64,000 nt of DNA from Anaerolineae bacterium (GTDB lineage Bacteria; Chloroflexota; Anaerolineae; CG2-30-64-16). Numbering within the stretch: position 1 is the first letter of the stretch; the number at the start of each line of letters is the position of its first letter. Location of the stretch: the NCBI GenBank assembly GCA_034432655.1, contig DAOUBP010000096.1:1849-65848 (forward strand), in the 5' to 3' direction. The position numbers were made by a program, and so were the translations under genes. The notes beneath the pieces are model-generated. The model was given only the letters and a program-made list of their open reading frames with translations. It was not told where the DNA came from and did not search any database. Below are positions 13,921 to 40,268 of the stretch, piece by piece.

Positions 13921-14625
13921 ATGGATTTTGCAGCGTTTTACGATGGGTATTGGCGGGGAAAAGCCGACGATGAGGTGGATCGGACGCGATTAGAGCAGTT
14001 GGCACGCCATGTGGTCGCCGGCGAGCGCGTGCTGCAGGTGGACTGTGGCCCTGGCTGGTTGCCGCAGATGCTGCTTGCACGGGGCGCGCAGGTCGTTGCC
14101 ACCGATCTTTCTGCGGTGGCTGTGGCGCGCGCCCGGGCGCGCGGGGTTGACGCTTTTCAGTTCGATATTGACACTGGTTCGTTGCCCTTTGCCGACAACT
14201 CATTTGACGTGGTGATCTCTGACTCTCAGCTCGAGCACCGTGTTAACACCGATCATGCCCTGAACGAGATGGCCCGGGTGTTGCGGCCCGGCGGACGATT
14301 GATCCTGTTGCTGCCGAATACCGCCCATTGGCGCGTACGTTTATGGCTGCTGCGCGGCCGCTTCCCATATCTGGATCATACCCCTACCGATCCTCTGCAT
14401 TTGCGATTTTTCACCCTGCCTGACGTGCGTCAGTTGCTGGCCCGACGTAATCTGGCTGTTATCTTCACCGACGGTAGCGCAAGCCTATGGGTGGATGATC
14501 TTTATCCCCGGTTCTTGCGGCGAGGCGGTTATCTGGCGGCAGGTTACATCTGGCTGGCTCATCGCTGGCCGGGGCTTTTTGCGCGTGATTTCATCGTAGT
14601 AGCGCGCAAGCAGGCCCGGAAGTGA
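13921..14625 (+). CDS. Class I SAM-dependent methyltransferase
   Basis: LQVDCGPGW (motif I), DVVISDSQLEH, LRPGGRLIL motifs. Confidence 0.75.
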   Translation: MDFAAFYDGYWRGKADDEVDRTRLEQLARHVVAGERVLQVDCGPGWLPQMLLARGAQVVATDLSAVAVARARARGVDAFQFDIDTGSLPFADNSFDVVISDSQLEHRVNTDHALNEMARVLRPGGRLILLLPNTAHWRVRLWLLRGRFPYLDHTPTDPLHLRFFTLPDVRQLLARRNLAVIFTDGSASLWVDDLYPRFLRRGGYLAAGYIWLAHRWPGLFARDFIVVARKQARK

Positions 14626-14632
14626 GCGCTTT

Positions 14633-16132
14633 ATGAGTCTGAAACGTCAGGTGGCGACTAGCTTCTTTTGGGTGGCATTGTCGCAGCTTTTCGGCCGTGT
14701 CTTGTCATTTTTCACCTATCTGATCCTGGCCAAATTGCTGGCGCCTTCGCTGTTCGGCCTGGTCAGCATGGCTGGCCTGGCCATCGCCGCGCTCCAGTTT
14801 TTGCAGGATGTCGGTTTTGACGCCGCGTTGATCTATCGCCGCGATGACCTGGAAGAGGCCAGCGATACGGCCTTTTTCGTGGTCATCGCCAGCAGCACCT
14901 TGATCTTCTTGGCCGCTGCCTTGGCCGCGCCGCTGGTGGCGGCGTTTTTCCGCACCCCGGAGGTTGTACCGGTGCTGCGGGCGCTCGCCTTTGCGGTGGT
15001 GATTCAAAGCTTTGGCCGGGTGGCTTACATCCGGTTGGAACGCGAGCTGGATTTTCGGCGTCGCGTGATCCCTGAGTTGACGGCGAATCTGATCAGCAGC
15101 CTGAGCTCGATCGGCCTGGCGTTGCTGGGGGTGGGGGTATGGAGCCTTGTCTGGGGCCAGTTGATCCGGGTGGCTGTTAGCAGCTCTCTGGTGTGGTTCT
15201 TCGTGGGCTGGCGGCCTCACTGGCGATTCAACTTCCGGTTAGCTCGCGAGCTGTTTCGGTACGGCAAACACATTGTCGCCTCGCAAGGGCTGATCTTCTT
15301 GATTACAAATTCCGACAACGCTATTGTCGGCCGCTACGCAGGAGATACGGCCCTGGGGTTTTACGGGTTCGCTTATAATCTGTCCAACTTGCCTGCCACT
15401 CAGATTACCAGCATGGTCAATCAGGTGATGTTCCCTGCCTTTTCCAAGCTCGGCGCCGACGCTGCACAGGCCCGTGCTCGATACTATCTGTCGGTGGTGC
15501 GCTATGTGGCCTGGGTGGCAGCCCCGATTTCGATTGCCACTATCTTGTTTGCGCGTGAGTTTGTCCAGGGGCTTTACGGTGATGTTTGGGCGGCTGCGAT
15601 TGTGCCGTTGCAACTCCTGGCAGTGTACGGCTTTATCCGTTCCATTGCCGCTAACATGGGCAGCATCTTTCGCGCTTTCGGCAAGCCGCAATGGCTGACC
15701 TACATCGCGCTTTGGCGGCTGACCACCATGCTGGTCTTTTTGTACCCGGCCGTCAAATTGTGGGGAATCGTCGGTGTCAGCGCGTTATCGGCCGTAGTGG
15801 CCGTGGTGGATTTCTACATTTCGGCAACGCTGGTAAGCCGTTTGATAGATGCTCCCTGGCGGGCATACGGGCAGATTTTGGCGGCTCCGCTCGCGGCCGC
15901 CTTGATCGGTGCTGGGGTTGCGCATCTTGTCTATCCTGGCCTGCATCTGCCCAAGGTGTGGATGAACCTGGGCCTGGCGGGCGCGCTGATGGTGGCCATC
16001 TATCTTGTCTTGATCTGGTTGGGGGAGCCCCGTTTCCGCGAAACGGGGCGCGCAGCATGGCGCTATGTGCGACAAGTGTTGCACCGGCGCGATGTCGTTG
16101 GCCCGGCGGTGGAGCCGCCGGCTAAAGGATAG
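14633..16132 (+). CDS. Polysaccharide biosynthesis protein / Wzx-like oligosaccharide flippase (MOP superfamily)
   Basis: 499 aa, ~12-14 TM helices, typical Wzx-family length and hydropathy. Confidence 0.65.
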   Translation: MSLKRQVATSFFWVALSQLFGRVLSFFTYLILAKLLAPSLFGLVSMAGLAIAALQFLQDVGFDAALIYRRDDLEEASDTAFFVVIASSTLIFLAAALAAPLVAAFFRTPEVVPVLRALAFAVVIQSFGRVAYIRLERELDFRRRVIPELTANLISSLSSIGLALLGVGVWSLVWGQLIRVAVSSSLVWFFVGWRPHWRFNFRLARELFRYGKHIVASQGLIFLITNSDNAIVGRYAGDTALGFYGFAYNLSNLPATQITSMVNQVMFPAFSKLGADAAQARARYYLSVVRYVAWVAAPISIATILFAREFVQGLYGDVWAAAIVPLQLLAVYGFIRSIAANMGSIFRAFGKPQWLTYIALWRLTTMLVFLYPAVKLWGIVGVSALSAVVAVVDFYISATLVSRLIDAPWRAYGQILAAPLAAALIGAGVAHLVYPGLHLPKVWMNLGLAGALMVAIYLVLIWLGEPRFRETGRAAWRYVRQVLHRRDVVGPAVEPPAKG

Positions 16133-16153
16133 TTCGCGTGAGGTGGATGTTTC

Positions 16154-18013
16154 ATGCCTGGATTGGTGGTGATCGTTGCTGAGCCGAAGCGTCCTGATCT
16201 GACGACGGTGTTGGACCAGATGTTGGGGGCCATGGCCTATCCTGGTTACCAAAGCGCGTCCCTGGTTGTACCCGAGTTGGGGATTGCGATGGGCCAGACA
16301 GGGCCTCGCCGTGTAGCACCGGCCAACCCGGGCCTTTGGCCGCCCGGCGCCACCTTGCGCACGGCGCAAGTCGTGACACTGCTGGAGGGTGAACCGCAAT
16401 TCCCCGGGCAGATGCGCGCGGAGTTAGGGCTTTCGCCAACCGCCGATCGGACAGAGGCGATTGCAGCGCTCTACGCCATCCGTGGAACAGGCGGATTCGT
16501 CCATCTGCGCGGCCATTGGGCGGCTGCGCTCTTGGACCGGCGGTCAGGCTCTTTGTTGCTGGTCAACGATCACTTCGGCACGCGTAGCCTTTATCGTGTG
16601 CGCGCGCAGGATGGCGCCTGGTTGGTTGCTACCCATCCGGCTGCGCTCTTGGCTTACCCACAACTTGACCGGGATGTGAATCTGGCCGGCATCGCTGAGT
16701 ACCTCGCCTTCGGCCATGCCTTGGGCCGTAAGACGATCTTTCGAGGCGTCGAGAGGTTACCGGCGGCTACCTGCCTGGAATTTGCGGCCAGGGAGTCGCG
16801 CGAAACACGCTATTGGCGCCCGCTTGCGCCGCCTGTCCAACAACGGGTCAGTCAGGCCGACCTGGAGGAGATTCGTCAGCTTTTCAACGAGAGTGTTTAC
16901 CGGGCAGCGACCACGGGAGGGGCAACCTGTCTGGCGCTCACCGGCGGGATGGATGCGCGGGCGATTCTGTCTGCCCTGGTGGCCGCCGGGCTGCAGCCCC
17001 ACACGTTGACACATGCGGTGCCGGACAGTACAGATGCTGTTTTGAGTGCAGAACTTGCCCGTCGGGCGCAGGCCACCCATCACTTCTTCGCGGTGCACGG
17101 TGAGATGCTACCACCGCAACTTGAGCCTGGAGCCAAATTGCTCGGCGGGATGGTGGCGGGCATAGATGTGCACCCACTGTGTTTTCTCGATGATCTGACG
17201 CAGTTCACCGATGTTGTGATGACCGGCCTGGGCGCCGATGTGATGCGCCTGGATCATGCCGGCGTGGACATCGTGCCGGGTCGCGATACGGCCGAAACCT
17301 TGATTGAGGATATCCGGCGCTATCATAACATGATTTTTAGCACCGGACACGATTTGCCTGTGCTCTTGGACCCGACGGTTGCGCCTGACCTGGCTTTGGA
17401 ACCGGTGCATGCGATTGCCGAATACGTCACGTCCCGGTTGCCCGACCTCCCGTTGGACGAGATCGGCAGCGCTTTCTTCCTGGAAGAGCGGGTGCCTACG
17501 ATCTGGGTCAAAGGTGATTTGATCGTGCGCCGTGAATTGGAGACCCGCCATCCATTTCTGGATCCGGATTTGCTGACTCGCGCCTGGGCTTTGCCGCGGT
17601 CGGCCCGTTTGCAGGCGTTGGCCCACCGCTACATCATCACGCGCAATGCGCCAGCTTTGGCTGATGTTCCTTATGAGCGGGATGGATTGCCCCTGCGCTA
17701 CCCCTTCACGTCGGCCGAGCGTTGGCGCCTTCGGTTGCAAAGCTGGCGACATGAGCTTGCGATGCGTTTGGGCCGGGGTTGGAAACGGCAGCCTAACTAC
17801 CGTTACGCGGACTGGCTTCGGGGCCCGTTGCGACCGCTGCTGGCAGAGGTCTTGTTGGATGCGCGCAGTATGGCGCGGCCGTATTTCCGGGCAGGTGTCC
17901 TGCGTCGTCTGTTTGACGAACATATGGCGGGCCGTGATCATACCGTGCGCCTGGCGGCTTTGTTGTCGCTTGAGCTAACAGTTCGTCTTTTGATCGAGCG
18001 CGATGGCATCTGA
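16154..18013 (+). CDS. Asparagine synthetase B-family protein (no N-terminal Cys nucleophile)
   Basis: AsnB-like central/C-terminal regions incl. PP-loop-like LTGGMDARAIL; begins MPGLVVIV (no Cys2), so glutaminase activity doubtful. Confidence 0.6.
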   Translation: MPGLVVIVAEPKRPDLTTVLDQMLGAMAYPGYQSASLVVPELGIAMGQTGPRRVAPANPGLWPPGATLRTAQVVTLLEGEPQFPGQMRAELGLSPTADRTEAIAALYAIRGTGGFVHLRGHWAAALLDRRSGSLLLVNDHFGTRSLYRVRAQDGAWLVATHPAALLAYPQLDRDVNLAGIAEYLAFGHALGRKTIFRGVERLPAATCLEFAARESRETRYWRPLAPPVQQRVSQADLEEIRQLFNESVYRAATTGGATCLALTGGMDARAILSALVAAGLQPHTLTHAVPDSTDAVLSAELARRAQATHHFFAVHGEMLPPQLEPGAKLLGGMVAGIDVHPLCFLDDLTQFTDVVMTGLGADVMRLDHAGVDIVPGRDTAETLIEDIRRYHNMIFSTGHDLPVLLDPTVAPDLALEPVHAIAEYVTSRLPDLPLDEIGSAFFLEERVPTIWVKGDLIVRRELETRHPFLDPDLLTRAWALPRSARLQALAHRYIITRNAPALADVPYERDGLPLRYPFTSAERWRLRLQSWRHELAMRLGRGWKRQPNYRYADWLRGPLRPLLAEVLLDARSMARPYFRAGVLRRLFDEHMAGRDHTVRLAALLSLELTVRLLIERDGI

Positions 18014-19229
18014 ATCGTTGACCTCGCTGGCGGGTGAGACGATCTTGTGTATGGCACCCGACCCTTGGCACGGTCTGTGGCGGAATCGTCATCACATTAT
18101 GACGCGGCTGGCGCGGCGCAACCTGGTACTCTACGTAGAGCCCAGGGTCTACTTGTGGGAAGCGTTGCGGCGTTTTCGCACCGGCCAATGGCGCCTGTCC
18201 GATTTGCGCCGGCCGCTGGCTGAGCATTATCAGGATGGGCTATATATTTATCACGATCCGTACTATGCACCGTTTGCGGGCCGGCTGAGCGGTGGGCCAC
18301 TGACCGCTGCATTGCGTCAGCGTGCCTTGCGCAAGACGTTGGCGCAATTGGGCGGCGGCGCGCCGATTTTGTGGTTATTGCGACCGTATCAGGCGGATCA
18401 CATCGGACGCTGCGATGAGAAACTGGTGGTCTATCATGTTACCGACGAATACAGCGCATACCCTTCGGTGACCGATCGAGAGGCATTTCGCCGTGCTGAG
18501 GAGGCGTTGTTGCGGCGGGCGGACCTGGTTATTGTCACGGCGCCCGGCTTGCTGACCAGCCGAAAGCCGCTTAACCCGCACACTTTTTTGGTGCCGAATG
18601 CAGTGGACTACGCAGGGTTTCAGCAGCGTTTGGCGCAACCAGCGTTGTGCCTTGAGGGAATGGCCGGTTTGCCCCGCCCGCGCATCGGCTACGTGGGCGC
18701 TTTGAACGAGAAGGTGGATTACGGGTTGTTGGCTCAGGTCGCCCGCCAACGGCCTGCGTGGCATATTGTGCTGGTGGGGCTACGTGATCTGGCCAGCGAG
18801 CCGCATAAGGCGGATGTGTTGGATGGGCTGACAAACGTTCATTGGTTGGGACCGGTGCCGGTCACAGAAGTCCCTGGGGCCATCGCCGGATTGGACGTGT
18901 GCCTGTTGCCTTATGAGCGTAACCCATGGACAGCGAACATTGATTCGCTGAAGTTGTATGAATATCTGGCTTGTGGGCGGCCGGTGGTTAGCACCGATGT
19001 GCCGACAGCCCATCTCTTTGATCGTGAGTCGGCCCGGGCGGGTGTTCCGTTGGTGCGCGTGGCCGACACCCCGGAAGCTTTTGTGGCACAGATTGAGGCT
19101 GCGCTGGCCGAGAATGGGCCGGAGGCGGCGGCTGCCCGTCGTCGCGTCGCTGCCGCTAACACCTGGGAACAGCGCGTCGCCCAGATCGAGCGCCTGTTGC
19201 TCGAGGCCCTGGCGCGCAAGAAGCGATGA
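18003..19229 (+). CDS. Glycosyltransferase (GT1/GT4-like), tandem paralog 1
   Basis: N-term PDPWHGLWRNRHHIMTRLAR; C-term LKLYEYLACGRPVVSTDVP; 11-bp overlap with upstream gene. Confidence 0.7.
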   Translation: MASESLTSLAGETILCMAPDPWHGLWRNRHHIMTRLARRNLVLYVEPRVYLWEALRRFRTGQWRLSDLRRPLAEHYQDGLYIYHDPYYAPFAGRLSGGPLTAALRQRALRKTLAQLGGGAPILWLLRPYQADHIGRCDEKLVVYHVTDEYSAYPSVTDREAFRRAEEALLRRADLVIVTAPGLLTSRKPLNPHTFLVPNAVDYAGFQQRLAQPALCLEGMAGLPRPRIGYVGALNEKVDYGLLAQVARQRPAWHIVLVGLRDLASEPHKADVLDGLTNVHWLGPVPVTEVPGAIAGLDVCLLPYERNPWTANIDSLKLYEYLACGRPVVSTDVPTAHLFDRESARAGVPLVRVADTPEAFVAQIEAALAENGPEAAAARRRVAAANTWEQRVAQIERLLLEALARKKR

Positions 19230-20395
19230 TCGAGGGGATTGATTTCGTCTATTATGGGCCGGAGCCCTGGGCCGGTATGTGGCGCAATCGCCATCACCTG
19301 CTCAGCAGGCTGGCCCGTTGTAACCGGGTGATCTATGTGGAACCGTTGCCATATCTGCGGCCGTTGCTGCAGCAGTGGGCTGCCGGTTCTGCACAGGGCC
19401 GGGCGTTAAACCCTGGCGGCCTTCAGCAATTGGCCCCCAATCTGTGGCGCTACCAGGCACCGGTTTATGCCGCTGTCGGCGGGGGTCCTTTGTGGCGGCC
19501 GGTTGCGGCGCAGTTGCGTGCAGCTCATTTGCGCAGCACGCTGCGTGCGATCGGGATAGATCGGCCGGTGGTGTGGCTTTCGCACCCGAGCCAGGCCTTC
19601 CTCCGTCACGACCTGGCTGCCCGGCTGCGTGTCTATCACGTGGTGGATGAGTATCTGGGTTACTTCGGCGTGGACGAGGCGCACCGGGCACGGTTGGCCG
19701 CCTGGGAGGATGAAATCATCGCCTGGGCCGATCTGGTGATTGTGGTGTCGCCTGCCCTGGCCGAAGCGAAACGCAAGGCCGGGCCTAAGATACACGTGCT
19801 GCCCAATGCTGCTGATCTGACCGCTTTTGACGCAGCACTGGCACATCCCACAGATCCCGGCCTGCCCCGGCCGGTGATCGGCTATGTCGGTTTGATCAGC
19901 AGCCGGCTTGATTTGAAGGCTTTGTTGAGCCTGGCCCAGCAGCAACCGGCCTGGTCGTTGGTGTTGGTCGGGGAAGTGGTGACCGCCGGCTGTGAAGCTG
20001 AGATCGCTGCTCTGCGGGCCCTGCCCAATGTGCATCTGCCGGGAGTCAGGCCTGCGGCCGAGATCCCGGCCTTGATTGCCGGCTGGGATGTGGGTTTGAT
20101 CCCGTATCGGGTCAACACAGAGACCGAGCATGCAAGCCCTTTGAAGCTGTACGAGTATCTGGCTGCCGGCCTGCCGGTGGTCAGCGCCGATGTGCCGGCG
20201 GTCCGGCCGTTTGCCGCGCTGGTTCAGATCGTGCCCGAGGGGGGGAGTTACGCAGAGGCGGTTGCACGCGCGTTGGCCGAGACCTCCGTTCAGGCTCGCC
20301 TGGAGCGTCGGGCGGCTGTGCGTGTCCATTCCTGGGACGCCCGGGTGGAGATGTTGTCCCAGATATTGGCCGAGGGGCTGGCCGGAACCGGTTGA
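19226..20395 (+). CDS. Glycosyltransferase (GT1/GT4-like), tandem paralog 2
   Basis: N-term PEPWAGMWRNRHHLLSRLAR; C-term LKLYEYLAAGLPVVSADVP; ATGA overlap with upstream gene. Confidence 0.7.
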   Translation: MIEGIDFVYYGPEPWAGMWRNRHHLLSRLARCNRVIYVEPLPYLRPLLQQWAAGSAQGRALNPGGLQQLAPNLWRYQAPVYAAVGGGPLWRPVAAQLRAAHLRSTLRAIGIDRPVVWLSHPSQAFLRHDLAARLRVYHVVDEYLGYFGVDEAHRARLAAWEDEIIAWADLVIVVSPALAEAKRKAGPKIHVLPNAADLTAFDAALAHPTDPGLPRPVIGYVGLISSRLDLKALLSLAQQQPAWSLVLVGEVVTAGCEAEIAALRALPNVHLPGVRPAAEIPALIAGWDVGLIPYRVNTETEHASPLKLYEYLAAGLPVVSADVPAVRPFAALVQIVPEGGSYAEAVARALAETSVQARLERRAAVRVHSWDARVEMLSQILAEGLAGTG

Positions 20396-20404
20396 ACAGG
20401 TGAG

Positions 20405-21379
20405 ATGAGCGTTTCGATCACAGATCAAGGCGATCGGAGGATCGTCGAAATCGTCGGAGAACAGCGCGGCTTTGGCGGGGTGGTGAACTACAGCCGGCTG
20501 GAGACCCACTACACCCGCGCGACCCTGGAGGCCTTGCTGGCCGCCAAGGGCGAGATGTGGCTGCGCGATGAAATCGCGCGGGCGGAGGAACCGTCCTACG
20601 TCCAGGAGCCGTTACGTCGTCAGTTCGAGCGGTTCGTTCCGGTGCGTGGCTTGCGGGTGTTGGATTTCGGCAGCGGTTGCAGCGCCTCCAGCTTATGTCT
20701 GGCGCGTCTGGGTGCAGCTCAGGTGGTGGGTGTGGAACCACAAGAACAGTTTGTGGAGGCTGCTCGCCTCCGCATTCGTGATAGTGGCCTGGCTGATCGC
20801 GTGACCGCTCTGCACCTGACCGACACCCTGCATTTGCCGTTTCCCGATGGCTGTTTTGACGCCGTGGTCATGAACGCTGTGGTCGAGCACATCCCGCCCC
20901 GCCTCCGGCCAGCACACCTGCGCGAGGTCTGGCGGGTGCTGGCAGCGGGGGGCCATCTTTTCATCGGCGAGACGCCTAATCGTCTTTGGCCGCAGGACTA
21001 TCACACCACAGGTTTATGGGGCGTGCCCTACCTCCCGCTGTCTGTGGCCAGGGCGTATGCGATCCGTCGCGGCCGGGTGCCGCCCGCTGCCACCACGGCT
21101 TGGCTGTTGTCCGAGGGGCTGCGGGGGGCAACCTACTGGGAGTTACAACGTGCGCTGGGGCGTGCCGCGATCTGTCTTAACCTGACGCGCGGCGACGACG
21201 TGGCTGCTTTTTGGGCGCGTTCCCTGGGCCGGCCGGGGCAATCCGACCGTAAGCTGGCCTTGAAACGCGCGCTGGCGTTCACCCATCAGTGGTTCGACAG
21301 GCTGGTGTTGCGCCCATTGCGCGTTCCAGCAGTCGCGCTCTTGCCCGATTTGAGCCTTTGCTTTCAGAAACGTGTCTGA
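20405..21379 (+). CDS. Class I SAM-dependent methyltransferase
   Basis: VLDFGSGCSASSLCLARLGA (motif I), FDAVVMNAVVEHI. Confidence 0.7.
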   Translation: MSVSITDQGDRRIVEIVGEQRGFGGVVNYSRLETHYTRATLEALLAAKGEMWLRDEIARAEEPSYVQEPLRRQFERFVPVRGLRVLDFGSGCSASSLCLARLGAAQVVGVEPQEQFVEAARLRIRDSGLADRVTALHLTDTLHLPFPDGCFDAVVMNAVVEHIPPRLRPAHLREVWRVLAAGGHLFIGETPNRLWPQDYHTTGLWGVPYLPLSVARAYAIRRGRVPPAATTAWLLSEGLRGATYWELQRALGRAAICLNLTRGDDVAAFWARSLGRPGQSDRKLALKRALAFTHQWFDRLVLRPLRVPAVALLPDLSLCFQKRV

Positions 21380-21404
21380 ATGACGGTCCTTGCAAGGATA
21401 AGGT

Positions 21405-22586: not shown

Positions 22587-22591
22587 CGCGC

Positions 22592-31703: not shown

Positions 31704-31780
31704 TAGACTCTGGCCCGGCACATCAAAGGGGAGGGTTATGCCCTCCCCTTTATGCGCTCTAACAGGGTAATGTTGCAAAA

Positions 31781-31820: not shown

Positions 31821-31831
31821 TTTCCTGTCTT

Positions 31832-33040
31832 ATGCTGGGCTCGTCGGCGTGCTCACCTGCGCCGGGCCAGCGCATGGCAGTGCGATGGAGAGTTTTTTTG
31901 AGCGGTAACGATAAACTGACGCTGAAGAAACTGGCTTCGGTTGATTGGGGTTCACTGGTGCGCGGGGCTTTTGATTACAATGTGCGCGCCCATTTTCAGA
32001 CGCTTCCCCCCAGAGTCTTACAGTTGATCACTAACTACCGCTGTAATGCCCGCTGTGTCATGTGCAACATCTGGCAGATGCCACATAAGCACGAGATGAC
32101 AGTGGGCGAGCTGGCGGCGCTGATGGACCCTGATCCGATTTTCGACCAGATCGAGCAACTGACCATCGCCGGCGGCGAGTCATCGTTGCGCACCGACGTG
32201 GTGGAGCTGGTCGGTTACACCCTTCAGCGCATGCCGAAACTGCGCACCCTCTCGATGGTCACCAACGGTTTTCTGCCGCCGCGGGTTTTGCAGCAAGTAG
32301 CCGGGGTGTTGGAGCTGTTGGAACCGCGCGGGGTGAAGCTGAGCATGTCGGTCTCGCTGGACGGCATCGGCACCATGCACGACCGGGTGCGCGGCATCCC
32401 CGGTGGCTTTGCGAAGGCACTGGAGACCCTGACCGGTTTGCAAGCGTTGCAGAAAGAGCACGACTTCTGGCTGGGGGTTGGTTATGTGGTGATGCACCAG
32501 AACCTGCGCCACGCGCGGGAGTTTCGTGATTGGGCCAGGGCGCGCGGCATCACCGTCGGCTTCCAACTGGTCGGCTTCCACGAGAGCTATGTGGGCAACC
32601 TCGACCGGCAGAACGACGTGGACTTCCGGCCCGAAGACCGGGAGGAGCTGATCGCCTTTATGCAGGAGCTGGCAGAACAGCGTTCGCTGCGCAATTACCC
32701 CGCGTTCTACTGGGCCGATATGCTGCGTATGTATCGCGACGGCGCGCCGCGTACCACGCCCTGTCCTTTCACCCTGGAAGGGCTGGCGCTGGACGCCTAC
32801 GGCGATGTTTTCTACTGTCTTTCCACCCCGGCCATCGGCAACGTGATCCGCGAACAACGCTCGGTGAGTGACATCTACTACGACCCTAAAAACCTGCATT
32901 ACCGGGCCCAAGAGATGCGCAAGCGCATCTGCACGCAGTGTAACAGCGCGTGCGGCACCGAAATCGCCATCAAGAAGGATGTGAAGAAATATCTGAGGTT
33001 CCTGGTGACCGGGAACCCGCCAAGAGGAGAACATCTATGA
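31832..33040 (+). CDS. Radical SAM enzyme with C-terminal Cys-rich (SPASM/twitch-like) extension
   Basis: C-x3-C-x2-C in NYRCNARCVMCNIW; C-terminal CPF...C...CTQCNSACG; true start may be an internal Met; stop overlaps next gene start (ATGA). Confidence 0.65.
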   Translation: MLGSSACSPAPGQRMAVRWRVFLSGNDKLTLKKLASVDWGSLVRGAFDYNVRAHFQTLPPRVLQLITNYRCNARCVMCNIWQMPHKHEMTVGELAALMDPDPIFDQIEQLTIAGGESSLRTDVVELVGYTLQRMPKLRTLSMVTNGFLPPRVLQQVAGVLELLEPRGVKLSMSVSLDGIGTMHDRVRGIPGGFAKALETLTGLQALQKEHDFWLGVGYVVMHQNLRHAREFRDWARARGITVGFQLVGFHESYVGNLDRQNDVDFRPEDREELIAFMQELAEQRSLRNYPAFYWADMLRMYRDGAPRTTPCPFTLEGLALDAYGDVFYCLSTPAIGNVIREQRSVSDIYYDPKNLHYRAQEMRKRICTQCNSACGTEIAIKKDVKKYLRFLVTGNPPRGEHL

Positions 33041-36012
33041 AAAAGAGACAATTGACCATTCTGGCAGCTATCAGCGCCGTCGTCCTGCTGGTAACCGCTG
33101 CGGCCGTCGGCGCCGCGCCCGCCAGCACCCGGCCGGCCGCCGATCCCTTGCCTGGCGAACGGCCGGCTGCACAGGCGCCCGCAGCCGTGCCCGATAACCT
33201 GGCCGCGGGCCGGGCCCCGGGCGTTTACTACCTGGATTACGGCGGGACGATTGTGGACCCCACGCAGTATCCGGTGCAGGGCGCTCTGCGCTTTTTCGGC
33301 TGGAGCACTCTACAGACCGGGCCGAACAGTTACAGTTGGAACGCGTTGGACAATTGGATCGCGGAGCGCAAGGGGCGTGGGCTGAGCACCGGCGTCTTCA
33401 TCAGCACCTACGACGGCAAGTACGACGGCGACATCCGTTCGACTCCCAATTTCGTGATCGAGACCCCGGGCACGATGATCGTAACCCCCGAGTACATCAA
33501 TTACTACCAATTCAGCCAGAACGGCAGCTTTGAGACCTCCACCCCGGTGCATGGTTATCTGTATGCCTGGGACAAGGCGGGCGATGCTTCCGGTGAGGTT
33601 GCACCCGGCGGCAGCCACGCGGCGAAGCTGGGCGGTGTGGAGGGCGGCACAGGCAGCATCACCCATTGGACCGTGCGCGTGCCGGCCATGCCGCCGGAGC
33701 TGACCAGCGGCACCAAGATGGAGCTGAAATATAAGCTTTATGTTGCTACCACTGACGTTAACCCCAACGCCGACCAGTTGTTCGTGGAACTTCTGGATCA
33801 GGAGAGCAATTTGCTGGCCAGCGTTGCCGCCCACTCCAACACCAGCGACGCCACCGGGACCTGGCTCAACATCGGCCCATTGGACTTAAGCTCCTATGTC
33901 GGCCGCGAACTGCGGCTGCGCTTTCGCGCGTTGAACGATGCGACCGCGCCCACCACCTTCTGGGTGGACGACGTGGAGCTGCGGGTGCGTCTGATCATCC
34001 CCAAGTATTGGGGTGATCCGTACAAGAACCTCTATCGCACGTTCGTTACTGAGTTGGGTAAGCGGTTGAGCGGCAACAGTGATGTTGACTTCGTCGCTAT
34101 CGGCACCGGCCTGCACGGTGAGACCCAGCCGTGCGACACCGAGCACCAGGGTTACCTGGAGGCTGCCGGCCTGAACTCTGACTTATGGGTGGCCACGGCA
34201 AACGAGATCACCAGCATGTACAGGGCGGCGTTCTCCGACAGCAGGGGGAACTTGAAGAAAAACCTGTTGCTGCAGTATGCGCCGTATTTTAAATACGCCT
34301 GGGAACGCGAAGCGATGAGCCGTTTCGCGGCGGAGAACGGCGTTGGCCTGTCCTACAATGGCCTGCTGCCGGACTGGGTGGGCAGCTATAGGAGCGACGG
34401 CACCGCTTCCTACGACCCCATCCGCAAGTATTGGAGCCTCGTCCCGGTGGCCTGGGAGACGTACACCTACATGCTGTGCACGCCGGTCTTCACCTATTGG
34501 TCCCTTTTTAGCGCGCTGGACAAACACGCCGATTATGTGCGCATCGGGGACGACTTGCTGACGGGGCCGCAAGGCACTTCCAACAAGCCGTTCTTCGAAT
34601 GGGCGAAGAAGTATTGGGGCCAGACCGGACAGACCACGCCGGGCGCCTGGGTGGTGATGCGCGAGCATCGCAACCCCACCCCTTACTGTCACTCCTCGTC
34701 CTATCCCACCTACGTGTATCAGGGCTCGGATGGTGGGCCATGGATCTACGTCCCCGGCGGCGATGTGCGGGGGTCCACCTACCCGCAGTTTGGCAACTAC
34801 TCTTTCTACCTGTACCAGGATGATGGCATCCCCGGCGGCCGCACGGTGCCTGAGACGAACGACAAGGGGGCTGACAGCCGGTATGCCTTTAATCCTGTAA
34901 CCGGTGCCAAGTGGACCGATGCAGGTTTGGGCAACTGCCCAACGGTCAACGATTACGCCAGCGTACTTTACCCGCCCGATTACCCCTGCAACAAACAGCC
35001 ATATAATCCTGATCTGCCGCCTCTGGGCTCGAACCCGAGCAATTACTACGCACCTTCCTCCTGGACCGACGCGGGGAAGGAAGCGTGGGTGGTGCGCCGC
35101 ACCGACCAGGACACAGGCAACCGCTACATGTGGTTTGTGTTCGACAACAGCTTCATCAGTGATGGCGATTCGAAGATCCACAGTGTCACAATCACCGTCA
35201 AGTACTTCGACATCGGCACCGACACCTGGACCCTGCGTTACGACAGCAGCAGCGGTGAGAAGGTCGCCGGCACGATCACCAAGACCAACACAAAGCAACT
35301 GAAGGAACAGGTCTTCACCATCACCGACGGCAAGTTCTCCGGCCGGCTGACGGGCGGCGCCGACTTCGTGTTGGACTGCAACAACGACGGCAACGAGTGG
35401 GTGCACATGGTGGAGGTGGTTAAATTAAGCTCCGTGACGCCGACGCCCACGCCGACCGCGACCGCAACGGCTACGGCCACGCCTACTATCACCCCGACGG
35501 CTACGCCTTCCCCCACGGGGACGCCGACCACGGGGATTGTCACAGGTTATACATTTCATGATCTGAACGGTGATTTTGAGAAAGGCGCAGGCGAACCGGG
35601 CCTGCCCGGCGCAGTGGTGGTGCTCAAGCCGGGCCTGGTCGGCACCACCGAAGCTTACACGGCTACTTCCGATGTGAACGGCCAGTTTGTCTTCGGCGCG
35701 GTGGCGCCTGGCCAGTACAGGATCGCCGTCAAGACGGCGCCGGCAGGGTTCCAGCCCCTCCTAGTGGATGCGATCCTGGTGGTCAGCGTCAATGCGACCA
35801 CAACCTTCAATATCCCGCATCAGCTTGCGCCGACTGCCACGCCGACGGCGACCAGCACGGCCACGCCGACGGCAACACTGACGGCTACACCGACGGCGAC
35901 CAGCACGGCCACGCCGACGCCGACGCTGACGGCGACGCCGACCGCAACCTTGACGCCGACGCCTGTTCACAGGCGAACCTATCTGCCGTTGGTGCTTTCC
36001 AGCGCTCCATAA
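33037..36012 (+). CDS. Secreted GH-like (TIM-barrel-type, family unassigned) protein, paralog 1: CBM4/9-like module (NGSFE...), SdrD-B-like domain, TP linkers, C-terminal YLPLVLSSAP
   Basis: AGGAGA RBS; signal peptide MKKRQLTILAAISAVVLLVTAAAVGA; shares G-x-[YH]-GE-[TN]-x-P and APY[FY]KY blocks with genes at 40301 and 43991. Confidence 0.8.
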   Translation: MKKRQLTILAAISAVVLLVTAAAVGAAPASTRPAADPLPGERPAAQAPAAVPDNLAAGRAPGVYYLDYGGTIVDPTQYPVQGALRFFGWSTLQTGPNSYSWNALDNWIAERKGRGLSTGVFISTYDGKYDGDIRSTPNFVIETPGTMIVTPEYINYYQFSQNGSFETSTPVHGYLYAWDKAGDASGEVAPGGSHAAKLGGVEGGTGSITHWTVRVPAMPPELTSGTKMELKYKLYVATTDVNPNADQLFVELLDQESNLLASVAAHSNTSDATGTWLNIGPLDLSSYVGRELRLRFRALNDATAPTTFWVDDVELRVRLIIPKYWGDPYKNLYRTFVTELGKRLSGNSDVDFVAIGTGLHGETQPCDTEHQGYLEAAGLNSDLWVATANEITSMYRAAFSDSRGNLKKNLLLQYAPYFKYAWEREAMSRFAAENGVGLSYNGLLPDWVGSYRSDGTASYDPIRKYWSLVPVAWETYTYMLCTPVFTYWSLFSALDKHADYVRIGDDLLTGPQGTSNKPFFEWAKKYWGQTGQTTPGAWVVMREHRNPTPYCHSSSYPTYVYQGSDGGPWIYVPGGDVRGSTYPQFGNYSFYLYQDDGIPGGRTVPETNDKGADSRYAFNPVTGAKWTDAGLGNCPTVNDYASVLYPPDYPCNKQPYNPDLPPLGSNPSNYYAPSSWTDAGKEAWVVRRTDQDTGNRYMWFVFDNSFISDGDSKIHSVTITVKYFDIGTDTWTLRYDSSSGEKVAGTITKTNTKQLKEQVFTITDGKFSGRLTGGADFVLDCNNDGNEWVHMVEVVKLSSVTPTPTPTATATATATPTITPTATPSPTGTPTTGIVTGYTFHDLNGDFEKGAGEPGLPGAVVVLKPGLVGTTEAYTATSDVNGQFVFGAVAPGQYRIAVKTAPAGFQPLLVDAILVVSVNATTTFNIPHQLAPTATPTATSTATPTATLTATPTATSTATPTPTLTATPTATLTPTPVHRRTYLPLVLSSAP
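35980..36000 (+). other. C-terminal YLPLVLS motif (followed by SAP-stop)
   Basis: ...PTPVHRRTYLPLVLSSAP-stop. Confidence 0.75.
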
Positions 36013-36172
36013 CGCGTCTGATACAACGGTAGCGTGTTCTCGACGCTCCGGGCCCTGGTTGCCTGATCCGGCCAGGGTCCGGAGCGTGTCTCTTGTCTCG
36101 GAGACTTCGGCAATGCCTGTTGTCCCGCCTGCCCGCTCACAAGTTCCCGCCCGTGTCCTGGCATCCTCAAGG

Positions 36173-37789
36173 ATGTCAAGATGGTTTCCTCTTGGTATCG
36201 TCCTGTTGATGACGGCCAGCCTGTTTGGGCTTTCCGGAGCGCTCAGTCGAGATGTAGCAGCCCGCGCGGCCGGATCAAGCCAGTGGGTACAAGAGCTTCC
36301 GACGCCGACGCTGGTACCCGGCACCGGCGCGATCGTAGGCCTGGTGTGGCACGATTTGAACAGTAACGGTTTGCGAGAGGCGGGCGAACCGCCCCTGGCC
36401 GGGGTGTTGCTATCCCTGGCACAGTCAAACGGCACCGTTGTGGCCACGGCACTTTCAGGTGAGGATGGCCGTTACCGCCTGGCGAACCTGGATCCGGGCC
36501 TGTATCAACTTGTGGCAACCCCTCCGACAGGCTACCAGCTGACCACGCCGGGCCTGTTCAACGTTTACGTTTCTGCCGGCAATGTGCTGACCATTGATTT
36601 CGGCGCGCGTCTTGTGCCCACGCCGACCCCGACCGCCACCCCGGTGCCTCGTTTGGATACCGACAGTGCAACCTTTGCCTGGTGTGGCAGTGTCATCTAC
36701 GGCACCACGCAAAACAAATCGAACAACGTCAGCAGCTATGGCTGTCGGCCTCATTGGCCCGAAACCGGGCCAGAGGTGGTCTACCGGATAGAGCTTAACC
36801 GGACACAGTCTTTCTCCGCTGCTTTCAGGATGACTACTGCTGATCTCGACTTGTTCCTGTTGCGGAGCGCCTTTCCGGAAAGTTGTGTCGCTGCTGGGGA
36901 CAACTATCTTGCGCTTGAGGCCTCGCCTGGCCTTTATTATCTGGTTGTTGACGGGTATGATGGTGCTGTCGGTGATTATGTGTTGAAGGTGGAGTGCCCT
37001 TTTGAGGTGCAGGCAACTCCTACACCCACGTTCACTCCCTCGCCAACTCCCACGGTCACACCGACCTTCACCCCCGGGCCGACAGCAACCCCAACCGCCA
37101 CACCGATCCCACACTGGCACTACCTGCCCCTGGTCGTGCGGCAGCCGGTTAGTGTCGTGGGCCCCCCTTCGCTGATGGTGTTTCAGCAAGGGCTTCAACA
37201 GTACAACGGGGTTGTTGATACTACTTTGAGCGCCTGGCAGCCCGACACCGCATTGGGCGGAAGTCCCCGCTTGTCGTTGCGTTATAACCAACAGACGGTT
37301 GAAACCACCCACATGGCGCCTTTGTTGCGGTTTGATTTGGGCTTGCTTCCGGCCAGCTCACAGATCGTTTCCGCCACGTTGGCCCTCTACGTGATTGAAC
37401 TGGAGCGGCCTGAGGACATCCGCGGGGAAGTCTATGGCCTGTTGGTGCCCTGGCGCGGTGAAACAGCCACCTGGCGACAGCGGGATGTGGGCCTGCCCTG
37501 GAATCGTCCCGGCGCGCAGGGGGCGGGCAGTGATCACATGGCCTGGCGGAGCGATAGCCAGCTCATCACCAGCAGTGGTCGTTGGGTGACCTTTGACGTC
37601 TCTGGGCTTGTGAGAACCTGGTTGGCGCAGCCTCTATCTAATTACGGCATGGTGGTCCTGGCTCAGCCCGGAGAGAGCGGGAGCAATCTCCAGGTTGATT
37701 TCGCCAGTAGTGAATACGGGGAGGTGAGCCTTCGCCCTAAGTTGACAGTGGCCTATCTGGTGCCTTTGGCTGCCAGTAACAGCCGTTGA
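36173..37789 (+). CDS. Secreted protein: SdrD-B-like domain + PPC/P-domain-like Cys-containing domain + TP linker + internal YLPLVVR + DNRLRE-like domain
   Basis: start chosen at MSRWFPLGIVLLMTASLFGLSGALS signal peptide (ORF opens at 36059); C-terminal 230 aa homologous to the DNRLRE-like region of paralogs A-C. Confidence 0.7.
   Translation: MSRWFPLGIVLLMTASLFGLSGALSRDVAARAAGSSQWVQELPTPTLVPGTGAIVGLVWHDLNSNGLREAGEPPLAGVLLSLAQSNGTVVATALSGEDGRYRLANLDPGLYQLVATPPTGYQLTTPGLFNVYVSAGNVLTIDFGARLVPTPTPTATPVPRLDTDSATFAWCGSVIYGTTQNKSNNVSSYGCRPHWPETGPEVVYRIELNRTQSFSAAFRMTTADLDLFLLRSAFPESCVAAGDNYLALEASPGLYYLVVDGYDGAVGDYVLKVECPFEVQATPTPTFTPSPTPTVTPTFTPGPTATPTATPIPHWHYLPLVVRQPVSVVGPPSLMVFQQGLQQYNGVVDTTLSAWQPDTALGGSPRLSLRYNQQTVETTHMAPLLRFDLGLLPASSQIVSATLALYVIELERPEDIRGEVYGLLVPWRGETATWRQRDVGLPWNRPGAQGAGSDHMAWRSDSQLITSSGRWVTFDVSGLVRTWLAQPLSNYGMVVLAQPGESGSNLQVDFASSEYGEVSLRPKLTVAYLVPLAASNSR
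37121..37141 (+). other. Internal YLPLVVR motif after TP linker
   Basis: ...TATPIPHWHYLPLVVRQPVSVVGPP...; same context (linker, basic/His residues, motif) as the C-terminal copies. Confidence 0.75.
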
Positions 37790-37804
37790 ACGCGCAGTGA
37801 GGCC

Positions 37805-39367
37805 TTGGTGAGAACGCAGAACCGAACAGCTTTCAGCCTGAAGGCCCATCCCGCGTGGTTGTGGGCGCTGTGGATCGTGATCACGGGCGTGACTTTGGCC
37901 ACCCGATACAACTGGCCGCTGACCGAAGACGCCGTCATGTATGCCCTTGACATCATGCGGCTCGATCGCGTGGGGCCCAGTGCCTGGCCGGCCGTGTTCA
38001 ACGGCGAGCTGTCGTTCGGCTACTATTGGTTGCTGCTGCAGCTATATCGTCTCTGGCATTCGCACGAGCAGCTTGTGGTTGCCCTGGCCCTGATCAACGT
38101 ATTCAGCAGCGCCATCGTTATCGGGCTTGTGATGTACCTTGCGCAACGATGGTTTGGCTACATCGTAGCTTTTTTTGCCGGGCCGCTATCGGCTCTGGCG
38201 CCTGCGTTCTGGCAGTTAAGCCGATACGGCCACCCAACCATGCCTACCCTGGCGGCCTTCCTGGGTGCTTTGGCCGCTTTGGACCGCGCAATCAGCGACC
38301 GGCAGGTTCGTTGGCTGCCGGCTGCCCTGTTCGTCCTGCTGACGATGGCCGCTTATCTTCTGCGCCTGGATGTTTTGCTGTTGGCCCCGACTTATCTGGT
38401 GTTCGTCGTGTGGCGGGGGCACGCTGTGCGCCGACAAATGGTGCTGGTGTTGGCCCTGTGGGGTGTGGCAGTCATCGGATATCTGGCCATCCGGCTGCTT
38501 GGCCTGGGATATATCTTGACCCCCGGTGGTGGCAGCTTTTTGTTGCACGTGGGGCGGACGTTGCACCACGGTACCCTGGCGAGCAACGTCGCCAAGAACG
38601 CCGCCTTGTGGGCGATGGGCCTTAATCCGCTGGTTGGGCTGGCAGCAGGTGCGACCGTGCTCGGCAGCCTGTGGCGCCGCCAGCTCTGGCCAGCGCTTTT
38701 CCTGGCCGTCTGGTTGCTGCCTGTGGGGGTCTGGTTGCCGTTCTATGCGCTGGATTTCTCGCGCATTGCCACGTTGAGCGTCCCGGCCGCCGCGTTGGCC
38801 GCGGCCTTGTTGCCGGTTCAGTTTGCCCGGCGGAAGCCGTTGCTTTGGTCGGCGGGCTTGTTGGCAGGCGCCCAGCTGGTCATGGCGTTGATCTACCCTC
38901 TGGCTGTACACGTCTACGCGCCGAAGACCGTATATCAGGGCCGGCCGTTGGCTGCTGTGCCGCTCGGCTTTGTGTGGGAGGACACGGTCTTCCGCCAGCG
39001 CTACTTGGATGAGCGTTGGCGCATCGCACAGCAGGTGGCGGCTGTCGAGGATGCAGACGTCCTGATCGTGGGCGCCTCTAATCTGATGTTGTATCGCCTG
39101 GCACTGGCGACGACACGGAATGTCTGGGAGGAGGAGAAAGGGACAGTGGCGGGCATCCCGATCAGCTTGCTCCGTACGGCTCAGAACCGTTTCTATCTGT
39201 TCGATGCCGATGACTGCCCGGGGTGCCGGCAGCCGCTGGCGACGTTGCTCAACGGTTTAGATTCGGGCTCGCTGGCTGTGCATGCGGTGCCTTTCGATAC
39301 GCGCTTTCAAGCGCAGGCGGTTCTGCTCAGAGATGTTGAGTCGGCGCATTGGTTGCAGGGCAGGTGA
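37805..39367 (+). CDS. Polytopic membrane protein with C-terminal soluble domain, GT-C-like (PMT/ArnT-like) candidate
   Basis: 520 aa, ~11 TM in the first 370 aa, early loop TEDAVMYALDIMRLDR. Confidence 0.45.
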   Translation: MVRTQNRTAFSLKAHPAWLWALWIVITGVTLATRYNWPLTEDAVMYALDIMRLDRVGPSAWPAVFNGELSFGYYWLLLQLYRLWHSHEQLVVALALINVFSSAIVIGLVMYLAQRWFGYIVAFFAGPLSALAPAFWQLSRYGHPTMPTLAAFLGALAALDRAISDRQVRWLPAALFVLLTMAAYLLRLDVLLLAPTYLVFVVWRGHAVRRQMVLVLALWGVAVIGYLAIRLLGLGYILTPGGGSFLLHVGRTLHHGTLASNVAKNAALWAMGLNPLVGLAAGATVLGSLWRRQLWPALFLAVWLLPVGVWLPFYALDFSRIATLSVPAAALAAALLPVQFARRKPLLWSAGLLAGAQLVMALIYPLAVHVYAPKTVYQGRPLAAVPLGFVWEDTVFRQRYLDERWRIAQQVAAVEDADVLIVGASNLMLYRLALATTRNVWEEEKGTVAGIPISLLRTAQNRFYLFDADDCPGCRQPLATLLNGLDSGSLAVHAVPFDTRFQAQAVLLRDVESAHWLQGR

Positions 39368-39397
39368 CAGCTTCATTATGGCAGAACTTACATCTTT

Positions 39398-39445
39398 TTG
39401 ACCTGGTCTGTTTATGCCGTGTTCATCTTGGTGTAATAGAATGCC
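39398..39445 (+). promoter_or_regulatory. AT-rich island with TTGACC and TAGAAT hexamers upstream of the sugar-transferase gene
   Basis: ctttttgacctggtctgtttatgccgtgttcatcttggtgtaatagaat; spacing non-canonical. Confidence 0.2.
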
Positions 39446-39536
39446 TATGGATTCACTGGGAGAGCAACAAAAGAGGTGGTCTTCTGCGAGACCCCTGGCC
39501 AGCAATCACTCTCGTCAAGAGGAGGACGTTCTTCCT

Positions 39537-40268
39537 ATGCTCAGCGAGCACTTTCAACCGCTAACATGGCAGCAACAAGTTGTGCGCCAAGATCGGCTTG
39601 TGGCATGGGATGCTCTGGCTCGTGGGATCTATCCGGCGGCAAAACGCATTATGGACCTGGTCTTATCCGTATTTCTCTTGATTGTCGCCGCACCGCTCAT
39701 GGCCGTTATTGCACTCGCTATCAAGCTTGATTCCCCCGGCCCGGTGCTGTATGTCCAACGTCGGGTCGGTCTGAACGGTCGCGTCTTCGACTTCTACAAA
39801 TTCCGTTCGATGACCAACGGTCATGATCATACCCAGGAACATCGCGCGTTTGCGCGAGCCTATATCAACGGCGAGCAAGTGTCGTCTTTGCGCGATAGCA
39901 ATGGTAAAGCAATTTTCAAGCCCGCTTCCAACGGCCATCAGGTGACCCGTATCGGCCGTCTACTGCGACGCACCAGCCTGGACGAACTGCCGCAACTTTT
40001 CAATGTGATTAAGGGGGATATGAGCCTGGTGGGCCCGCGTCCCTCCATTGATTATGAAGTCGAGATGTATACCGATTATCATCGCCAGCGCCTGGCGGTG
40101 TTACCCGGCCTCACCGGTTGGGCACAGATCAACGGTCGCAGCAGCCTGGCTTTTGATGAGATTGTGGCCCTGGACCTGGAGTATATTGCCCAGCGATCTT
40201 TGTGCAAGGATCTGAGCATCCTTGTGGGGACCCTGCCGGTTATCCTGCAGGCCGACAGCGCAGGTTGA
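39537..40268 (+). CDS. Polyprenyl-phosphate sugar-1-phosphate transferase (bacterial sugar transferase family; WbaP/WcaJ/PglC-like initiating enzyme)
   Basis: GAGGAGGA RBS; [27 protein letters not shown] then [21 protein letters not shown] signature. Confidence 0.85.

Follow-up and report, generated by a model that had tools for sequence, protein, structure and literature searches.

The 64,000-nucleotide stretch analysed here (the window; positions 1,849 to 65,848 of the Anaerolineae bacterium contig DAOUBP010000096.1) contains, between its positions 13921 and 40268, a run of glycan-assembly genes that we read, on balance, as a lineage-conserved, Anaerolineae-type cluster for a Wzx/Wzy-dependent surface heteropolysaccharide with dedicated extracellular processing and binding enzymes. 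The membrane protein of the Wzy_C family encoded within this run is likely to be the repeat-unit polymerase Wzy. The glycan-assembly core of the locus is ordinary; what is unusual is how well the tagged secreted enzymes and the sortase-like peptidases around it are conserved. An earlier interpretation made from the letters of the stretch (the sequence-only reading) had proposed a protein O-glycosylation system, in which a Wzy_C-type O-oligosaccharyltransferase (O-OTase) or GT-C membrane enzymes modify the Thr/Pro (TP) linkers of neighbouring secreted proteins. Of that proposal, the functional link of the secreted proteins to the glycan genes was supported, and the specific O-glycosylation mechanism was not.

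The window proteins were scanned with Pfam and NCBIfam (the Pfam scan of the Wzy_C protein at E <= 0.01), and the open reading frames (ORFs) of related loci, numbered L002-L021, were compared with them by blastp. L002 is a close relative (81% identical), the distant loci are those at 34-38% Wzy_C identity, and L015-L018 are long contigs reached from the side of secreted protein D, via four of its homologues that carry the C-terminal YLPL tail described below. The scans bore out the gene content listed in the sequence-only reading for 13921-40268, with 20 co-directional, closely set genes; besides the glycan genes, this interval holds a radical SAM/SPASM gene and the genes of secreted linker proteins D and E. 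The genes of the core are as follows.

13921-14625, + strand: S-adenosylmethionine (SAM) methyltransferase 1, starting 6 bp after the gene of secreted protein C
14633-16132, + strand: Wzx/MOP flippase (Polysacc_synt_3, 256.6 bits; about 11 hydrophobic segments)
16154-18013, + strand: AsnB-like glutamine amidotransferase, an accessory gene found among the distant loci in L007 only
18003-19229 and 19226-20395, + strand: two TuaH-like GT4 glycosyltransferases
20405-21379, + strand: SAM methyltransferase 2
21405-22586, + strand: Wzz/PCP-like chain-length protein with 2 transmembrane (TM) segments
22592-23818, + strand: GT4 glycosyltransferase
23815-25269, + strand: Wzy_C-family membrane protein (PF04932, 71 bits; about 10 hydrophobic segments)
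25266-26435, 26432-27595, 27595-28611 and 28601-29833, + strand: four GT4 glycosyltransferases
29846-30421, + strand: NeuD/PglB/VioB-like hexapeptide sugar acetyltransferase
31832-33040, + strand: radical SAM/SPASM enzyme, whose stop codon overlaps the start of the D gene by 4 bp
39414-40268, + strand: priming polyprenyl-phosphate phosphoglycosyltransferase (Bac_transf, 209.5 bits against a cut-off of 27)

The GT4 genes total seven (starts at 18003, 19226, 22592, 25266, 26432, 27595, and 28601), and the flippase and GT4 proteins gave their best scores against the Bacillus subtilis teichuronic-acid proteins TuaB, TuaH, and TuaC. The chain-length protein scored just above the cut-off of the Wzz model (30.1 bits versus 25.5) and under that of GNVR (24.9 bits). 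The phosphoglycosyltransferase also matched TIGR03025 (272 bits versus a cut-off of 295), and its start is likely at 39537 rather than 39414, because the orthologues are 242-244 amino acids (aa) long. For the Wzy_C protein, the public gene call starts at 23818 and gives 483 aa, compared with 484 aa for the ORF from 23815. The tight gene overlaps that had been described were also found, 4-bp ones of the ATGA type at four junctions and 11-bp ones at two; two further junctions overlap by 1 bp, and most of the remaining gaps are 5-25 bp. The true extent of the co-directional block is larger than the core, comprising 25 consecutive plus-strand genes from 2038 to 48175. The G+C content of the window is ∼59-67%.

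From the functions of these families, the small Bac_transf enzyme would prime polyprenyl phosphate, and the repeat unit would then be extended in the cytoplasm by the seven GT4 enzymes. The two SAM methyltransferases, the NeuD-type acetyltransferase, and the AsnB-type amidotransferase would decorate the repeat unit or its precursors, after which Wzx would flip the repeat unit across the membrane and the Wzy_C protein would polymerize it, with the Wzz-like protein controlling this step. Outside the cell, the secreted proteins would act on, bind or be held by the polymer.

Conservation of gene order ties this core to the secreted proteins. The related loci come from species-representative genomes, all of them Chloroflexota metagenome-assembled genomes, mostly labelled Anaerolineae or Anaerolineales and in one case Chloroflexia. 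At 34-38% Wzy_C identity, the order of the 5' half is C, methyltransferase 1, Wzx, two GT4 genes, an additional GT-like gene, Wzz, and Wzy_C, and that of the 3' half is four GT4 genes, the acetyltransferase, D, E, the priming phosphoglycosyltransferase, F, and G. The acetyltransferase is the best-conserved gene of the cluster, with 76-81% identity in most distant loci and 69% in L016. Orthologues of C end no more than 8 bp from the first methyltransferase gene in L008, L009, L012, and L013, and in L007 the C orthologue lies directly upstream of that gene, with the exact junction not resolved. The D and E orthologues follow the acetyltransferase, and in L015-L018 the phosphoglycosyltransferase, F, and G come after them; each of the four D homologues with a YLPL tail that were examined on long contigs has this cluster context. 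Since the arrangement of C, D, E, F, and G around the cluster is retained at only 34-38% Wzy_C identity, we conclude that the link between the secreted proteins and the glycan machinery is real and that both belong to a single conserved unit. Orthologous clusters devoid of linker-rich neighbours, which the sequence-only reading had named as evidence that would speak against it, did not turn up in the loci examined, where the secreted proteins are integral to the locus. The Wzy_C family itself is small, as an indexed search of 5.8 billion proteins returned 18 matches; an identical copy of the window protein is present in the assembly of run SRR7903765, which is a metagenome of a thermal pool on Kunashir Island, and also on an NCBI contig.

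Other genes vary among the loci. AsnB follows Wzx in some of them, and in some a glycosyltransferase and an NTP_transf_5 protein lie between the second and third of the four GT4 genes of the 3' half; between the acetyltransferase and the D orthologue, distant loci carry a methyltransferase or a Gfo/Idh/MocA oxidoreductase. Accessory genes that are absent from the window include those of the NTP_transf_5 protein (610-660 aa) and the Gfo/Idh/MocA oxidoreductase (in loci L007-L013 and L015-L018), a CE4 polysaccharide deacetylase (L016), and sulfotransferases (L017 and L018). These differences point to lineage-specific decoration of the glycan. No homologue of the radical SAM/SPASM gene at 31832-33040 was detected in the related loci examined, and a B12-binding radical SAM gene after the phosphoglycosyltransferase gene in L015 is unrelated to it. 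Its stop/start overlap with D suggests translational coupling, and it may be a lineage-specific maturase.

The assignment of the Wzy_C protein was approached through domains, fold, and context. On the classification against PglL and WsaB that the sequence-only reading had named as a check, the protein matched PF04932 only, and no signature of PglL_A, PglL_B, or Wzy_C_2 was present. PglL_A and PglL_B, the flanking motifs, are the criterion for PglL-type O-OTases, and a Wzy_C gene's location inside a polysaccharide locus argues for a ligase or polymerase and not for PglL (PMC3643930). The gene analysed here lies within a polysaccharide locus, a point against a PglL-type role, and conserved linker proteins flank that locus, a point in favour of one. 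Arg residues of the core and the H391-N392 pair are invariant in our alignment (A1). A fold search returned WaaL (7TPG, E = 2e-5) and then FtsW, and a PDB sequence search with the Wzy_C profile gave nothing meaningful. The WaaL/SEDS fold is common to ligases, polymerases, and SEDS proteins, so the fold match does not separate polymerase, ligase, and O-OTase.

Context discriminates where the fold cannot. In five relatives (L008 and L010-L013), the stop codon of Wzz overlaps the start of Wzy_C by 4 bp, suggesting translational coupling of the kind expected of a Wzy-Wzz pair. In the conserved core, the Wzy_C protein is, Wzx aside, the only polytopic (multi-TM) protein and hence the only polymerase candidate. 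A flippase and a chain-length regulator call for a polymerase in the same pathway, and as there is no other candidate, the protein is read as Wzy. Based on the missing PglL marker domains, the position in a polysaccharide locus, the pairing with Wzz, and the lack of a second polymerase candidate, its earlier assignment as an O-OTase was not borne out.

The proteins encoded on both sides of the cluster and inside it are large and secreted, with signal-peptide-like N termini throughout.

2038-5763, + strand: secreted protein A, 1241 aa; esterase-like domain, DNRLRE/CBM96 module, BNR/Ycf48-like propeller, TP and TA linkers, SdrD_B domain, tail
5903-10543, + strand: secreted protein B, 1546 aa; three SdrD_B domains and several TP linkers, ending in the tail RKQYIPLLLRGLDS; paralogue of A and C
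10846-13914, + strand: secreted protein C, 1022 aa; esterase domain, DNRLRE/CBM96 module, SdrD_B domain, TP linkers, tail WRSYLPLLLRTE
33037-36012, + strand: secreted protein D, 991 aa; glycoside hydrolase (GH)-like TIM barrel, TP linker, SdrD_B domain, TP linker, tail RRTYLPLVLSSAP
36059-37789, + strand: secreted protein E, 576 aa; SdrD_B domain, TP linkers, internal HYLPLVVR, DNRLRE/CBM96 module; orthologues conserved
40301-43822, + strand: secreted protein F, 1173 aa; D-like GH-type N terminus, DNRLRE/CBM96 module, CBM9, SdrD_B domain, YLPL tail
43991-48175, + strand: secreted protein G, 1394 aa; S/T/P-rich segments, YVTN beta-propeller, no YLPL tail

The Thr/Pro(/Ala) linkers noted earlier were found in A-F, and conservation downstream of the locus extends to orthologues of G. 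Proteins A, B, and C share an alpha/beta-hydrolase domain (PHB-depolymerase/CE1-like esterase) and the DNRLRE/CBM96 module. C and its orthologues retain the GxSMGG nucleophile elbow (GYSMGG in C), the Asp, and the His, and C thus looks like a serine esterase with an intact catalytic triad; the nucleophile Ser is gone in the non-syntenic paralogues A (GFDTGG) and B (GYGMGG), which, judged by these residues, are probably non-catalytic binding proteins. No Pfam match was obtained to the 750-aa N terminus of D, and a PDB sequence search with the N termini of D and F gave nothing meaningful. The AlphaFold model of D (26-sequence alignment, pLDDT 87) has a TIM barrel with a jelly-roll insert followed by a beta-sandwich, and a fold search matched it to GH51, GH14, and GH35/42-type enzymes and to carbohydrate-binding modules. 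Two invariant Glu residues (E307 and E419) lie near the ends of barrel strands. One D homologue carries the Pfam GH42 domain, and one with a different C terminus (no YLPL tail) is encoded among GH43, GH1, GH2, and sugar ABC transporter genes. F shares the N-terminal fold region of D and adds CBM96 and CBM9; D, by its predicted model, and F look like glycoside-hydrolase-like TIM barrels. The conserved secreted neighbours therefore look like carbohydrate-active enzymes and binders. With the esterase and GH-like catalytic residues intact, a role in glycan processing fits them at least as well as that of a passive glycosylation substrate, and they are probably not mere O-glycan acceptors. No S-layer homology (SLH) domain was found in the large window proteins scanned, and the model of the anammox S-layer glycoprotein (Kustd1514) was rejected as uninformative, as its matches of 20-48 bits (cut-off 1400) cover the T-rich linker and SdrD_B.

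The intergenic regions around A, B, and C were examined by RNA folding. Strong hairpins after A and B, as noted in the sequence-only reading, were recovered, and the 6-bp gap between C and the methyltransferase gene has no stable hairpin (z = 0.19).

5773-5815, + strand: hairpin after A (19-bp stem, z = -6.7)
10626-10822, + strand: series of G+C-rich hairpins between B and C, including 10626-10653 and 10717-10743 (z down to -6.4)

Neither the hairpin after A nor those after B have a T-run (the first is followed by an A-run), and a simple scan for consensus terminators missed them for this reason; direct folding detected them.

A, B, C, D, and F, together with the C25 peptidase encoded at 51517-53829 (six proteins of the window in all), end in a shared C-terminal tail. 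Its consensus, [RK][RK]x-Y-L-P-L-[VL]-L-[RKQ] plus 1-7 residues, was derived from 42 listed sequences that include a database copy of D.

5740-5763, + strand: tail of A
10508-10543, + strand: tail of B
13885-13914, + strand: tail of C
35980-36012, + strand: tail of D
43796-43822, + strand: tail of F
51517-51543, - strand: tail of C25 peptidase b (PVYLPLIAR)
48233-50428, - strand: C25 peptidase a, PorU-like
50435-51496, - strand: TP-rich membrane-anchored protein between the two C25 peptidases
51517-53829, - strand: C25 peptidase b, PorU-like, with the YLPL tail

Of 53 distinct D-family homologues, 35 keep the tail, at identities as low as 40%, and a basic residue lies within 5 aa upstream of YLPL in 39 of the 42 listed tails. 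Its length, 7-13 aa in the cargo-like proteins, is insufficient for a membrane helix. The tail matched no Pfam or NCBIfam model, and nothing specific to it was found in the searchable literature. The motif is also internal, as YLPLV, in E (37121-37141, + strand) and in all five E orthologues (including those of L015, L016, L017, and L009), and in all of these it directly precedes the DNRLRE/CBM96 domain; it could there be either a processing site or a docking strand, and not strictly a C-terminal signal. The tail might be the missing strand of an SdrD_B or DNRLRE domain, in donor-strand or cohesin-dockerin-like docking. A second ending (...NHFY.V......NR.G.F.F.L..G) closes an M14 and an S8 peptidase of the window (53942-54040 and 56218-56320, both - strand) and replaces the YLPL tail in other D homologues (P0044-P0046, P0049-P0053, and P0055-P0059); the two endings look like interchangeable modules.

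Both C25 peptidases have PorU as their top NCBIfam match (264 and 257 bits; NF033707, cut-off 420), with the PorU-related PorU2 model as the only other one, and both retain the GHG and Cys motifs. The trio of peptidase b, anchor protein, and peptidase a is conserved in L020 and L021, and peptidase a adjoins the G orthologue in L015 (22375-23087) and L020. In one locus, peptidase a has 71% identity, against only 44% for D; a metagenome scan with peptidase a found three loci only.

Polytopic membrane proteins that might be GT-C enzymes lie within and beside the cluster.

30468-31703, + strand: GT-C membrane protein (PMT_2, 44 bits; about 9 hydrophobic segments)
37805-39367, + strand: possible second GT-C protein (PMT_2, 22.5 bits versus a cut-off of 26.1; about 9 hydrophobic segments)
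708-2015, - strand: polytopic membrane protein with a weak GT87 match (19.1 bits versus a cut-off of 25)

Of the up to three GT-C proteins suggested earlier, that at 30468-31703 passes its Pfam cut-off and the other two fall short. The PMT (PF02366)/PMT_4TMC architecture is absent from the window GT-C proteins, which gave only PMT_2 matches to the PMT families and no NCBIfam match. The gene at 30468-31703 is present in the window and in the close relative L002 and was not found in the distant loci; by blastp, no homologue of any of the three was detected in L003-L013, L015, L017, or L018. L016 has a 517-aa PMT_2 protein after the phosphoglycosyltransferase, which blastp did not link to 37805-39367.

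In L002 (GCA_900175145.1, FWWM01000504.1), a different set of genes follows the GT-C gene (18060-21449), encoding a sortase, an LPG_synthase_TM protein, an LPPTG-motif CLIPPER-domain protein, and a TMEM260-like GT-C protein; in the window, this position is taken by the radical SAM gene, D, and E. At the left end of the window, a second hexapeptide sugar acetyltransferase gene (47-724, + strand) converges with the GT87-like gene at 708-2015, overlapping it by 17 bp, and the ORF at 35-718 (- strand) was rejected as an antisense artefact of a real plus-strand gene. At the right end, the 928-aa Gly/Ala/Arg-rich ORF at 61096-63882 (- strand) was likewise rejected as antisense; the real gene opposite it is a plus-strand ORF from 60784 that encodes a signal peptide and runs past the window end (at least 1072 aa).

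Several observations weigh against the interpretation of the locus as a Wzx/Wzy cluster with its own polymerase and processing enzymes. Polymerase and ligase cannot be told apart from the sequence or the fold of the Wzy_C protein, whose best curated match is TIGR03097 (54 bits versus a cut-off of 188), a hypothesized exosortase-associated O-glycosylation ligase family, and whose AlphaFold model, built on a ten-sequence alignment, is only moderate (pLDDT 68). No domain that would serve export or ligation (of Wza, of LCP, or of another Wzy_C-type/WaaL protein) was found in any window gene scanned, and no NCBIfam match of any of these genes reached its curated cut-off. The GH assignment of D is that of a predicted fold with low global TM-scores. 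GT-C genes of the PMT_2/TMEM260 type recur near the locus in relatives, including L002 and L016.

The O-glycosylation proposals have to be judged against these same data. A Wzy_C protein acting as a PglL/PilO/WsaB-like O-OTase, which would move an undecaprenyl-pyrophosphate-linked glycan en bloc to linker Thr residues of the co-transcribed proteins, would be consistent with a family that includes O-OTases, with the top match to a "putative O-glycosylation ligase" model (TIGR03097), and with linker-rich proteins as conserved neighbours as close as 8 bp or less to the cluster; O-OTases often adjoin their targets (PMC3643930). We nevertheless consider it unlikely, as the PglL_A and Wzy_C_2 domains are absent, the gene lies where a ligase or polymerase would be expected (PMC3643930), the Wzz partner shares a stop/start overlap with it, and there is no second candidate polymerase; the TP linkers vary among orthologues that keep the tail, and the enzyme active sites of the neighbours are intact. 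O-Glycosylation by the cluster would need either a non-polymerase role of its sole Wzy_C protein or an enzyme encoded elsewhere, which is possible. TP linkers are the classical acceptor of Pmt enzymes, and this, together with the 44-bit PMT_2 match and the recurrence of PMT_2/TMEM260_N genes beside the locus in L002 and L016, would fit a different route, in which the three GT-C proteins O-glycosylate linker Thr residues from polyprenyl-phosphate monosaccharides in a Pmt-like manner and the cluster makes a separate polymer. The family membership of these proteins is weak, however (no PF02366 or PMT_4TMC, two of the three below their cut-offs, and no NCBIfam match), no GT2 polyprenyl-phosphate sugar synthase that could supply the donor is encoded in the window, and homologues were undetected in nearly all of the distant loci. 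The GT-C route was therefore not borne out, and we regard it as quite improbable. The TP linkers may well be glycosylated, but nothing in the present data links such glycosylation to this cluster; nothing specific on Chloroflexota O-glycosylation was found in the literature.

The tail invites another explanation, in which it is a sorting signal cut by the PorU-like C25 pair and the new C terminus is joined to the glycan of the cluster. The occurrence of the tail on six window proteins and 35 distinct D-family homologues with its upstream basic residue, the PorU matches and retained motifs of both peptidases, and the conserved position of peptidase a beside G and of the trio argue for it. Genes of the AsnB and NeuD types are also found in the locus, and Gfo/Idh/MocA genes in its relatives; in type IX secretion (T9SS), such enzymes make the amide-bearing linking sugars of the cargo. 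On the other side, both scores are below the PorU cut-off, the T9SS-type C-terminal domain and other T9SS parts are absent, the motif is also internal in E orthologues, the co-occurrence is confined to a few loci, and the chemistry is hypothetical. Nothing specific on C25/PorU proteins in Anaerolineae was found in the literature. Anchoring of this kind is very unlikely in our estimate, and there is as little reason to expect that the tail is a previously undescribed Chloroflexota sorting signal by which the C25 pair covalently attaches the secreted enzymes to the cluster polysaccharide.

As a probable surface-polysaccharide cluster with its own enzymes, the locus bears on the outer envelope of Chloroflexota, for which polysaccharide or protein layers, and not an outer membrane, have been suggested (bioRxiv 10.1101/2025.08.19.671072). 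It is a concrete conserved candidate for building part of that outer layer, in which a complex, decorated polysaccharide comes together with a constant set of large secreted proteins that look like enzymes, a common tag for which no model exists, and sortase-like peptidases. If the proteins are glycosylated or glycan-anchored, the locus offers a testable model of surface assembly for a major, mostly uncultured phylum; tail-to-glycan anchoring would be a system like that of PorU and anionic lipopolysaccharide (A-LPS) outside Bacteroidota and would help to explain the non-membrane outer layers of Chloroflexota. Otherwise, it is a well-delimited exopolysaccharide (EPS) operon with its own processing enzymes. 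Even then it is of value for annotation, as most of these genes are unnamed or "hypothetical" in the databases searched.

Among known systems, the locus belongs to the generic Wzx/Wzy class only: it has the priming phosphoglycosyltransferase, Wzx, a Wzz/PCP protein, and the Wzy_C protein as the polymerase candidate, a role that we infer, and the export/ligation step is absent from the window. On the defining features that were tested, it falls short of PglL-type O-OTases, slg clusters, GT39 Pmt enzymes, PEP-CTERM systems, and the PorU branch of T9SS. With PglL/PilO/TfpO and WsaB/WsfB it shares a Wzy_C-domain enzyme, a lipid-linked glycan pathway, and adjacent Ser/Thr/Pro low-complexity candidate acceptors; unlike them, the window has a single Wzy_C-type protein that lacks PglL_A and PglL_B and is paired with Wzz, and it encodes no pilin, no dedicated OTase beside the polymerase, and no SLH S-layer protein as a target. 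The resemblance to the PorU/A-LPS system lies in two C25 proteins, with PorU as best curated match, near a Wzx/Wzy locus and proteins with a common C-terminal signal; the window differs in having no ∼80-aa C-terminal cargo domain and scores below cut-off, transpeptidation is hypothetical here, and to our knowledge T9SS is not known in the host phylum.

EPS operons with built-in processing enzymes, such as Psl with PslG, Pel with PelA, cellulose with BcsZ, and alginate with AlgL, are similar in that assembly genes are co-inherited with the gene of a secreted enzyme (hydrolase or esterase) whose predicted substrate is the product. The window differs from these in carrying five to seven multidomain proteins of very large size, which have TP linkers and SdrD_B domains and share a tail, and in its enzyme families, which are not those of these operons. 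In XrtA/PEP-CTERM loci, secreted proteins with a short C-terminal tag also cluster with EPS genes. The AsnB-like, Wzz-like, and Wzy_C proteins have XrtA-associated families (TIGR03108, TIGR03007, and TIGR03097) as their top NCBIfam matches, and such families also occur among the matches of the GT4 proteins and the phosphoglycosyltransferase; the associated families scored 54-109 bits against cut-offs of 188-817, and no exosortase or PEP-CTERM match was found in the window, whose tag lacks a PEP motif, a TM helix, and an Arg cluster. The tua operon of B. subtilis directs synthesis of teichuronic acid, a Wzx/Wzy-type anionic wall polymer of a monoderm. The window shares with it a Bac_transf primer, a TuaB-like flippase (200 bits), TuaH- and TuaC-like GT4 enzymes, and, by the established roles of the tua genes, a Wzy_C-family putative polymerase with a Wzz-like partner. 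It differs in scores far under the equivalog cut-offs, in having no UDP-glucose dehydrogenase or GT2, and in its extra methyl-, acetyl-, and amidotransferases and conserved tailed secreted enzymes. From these comparisons, we conclude that the closest gene-by-gene matches of the locus are the teichuronic-acid operon of B. subtilis and the XrtA/PEP-CTERM EPS loci.

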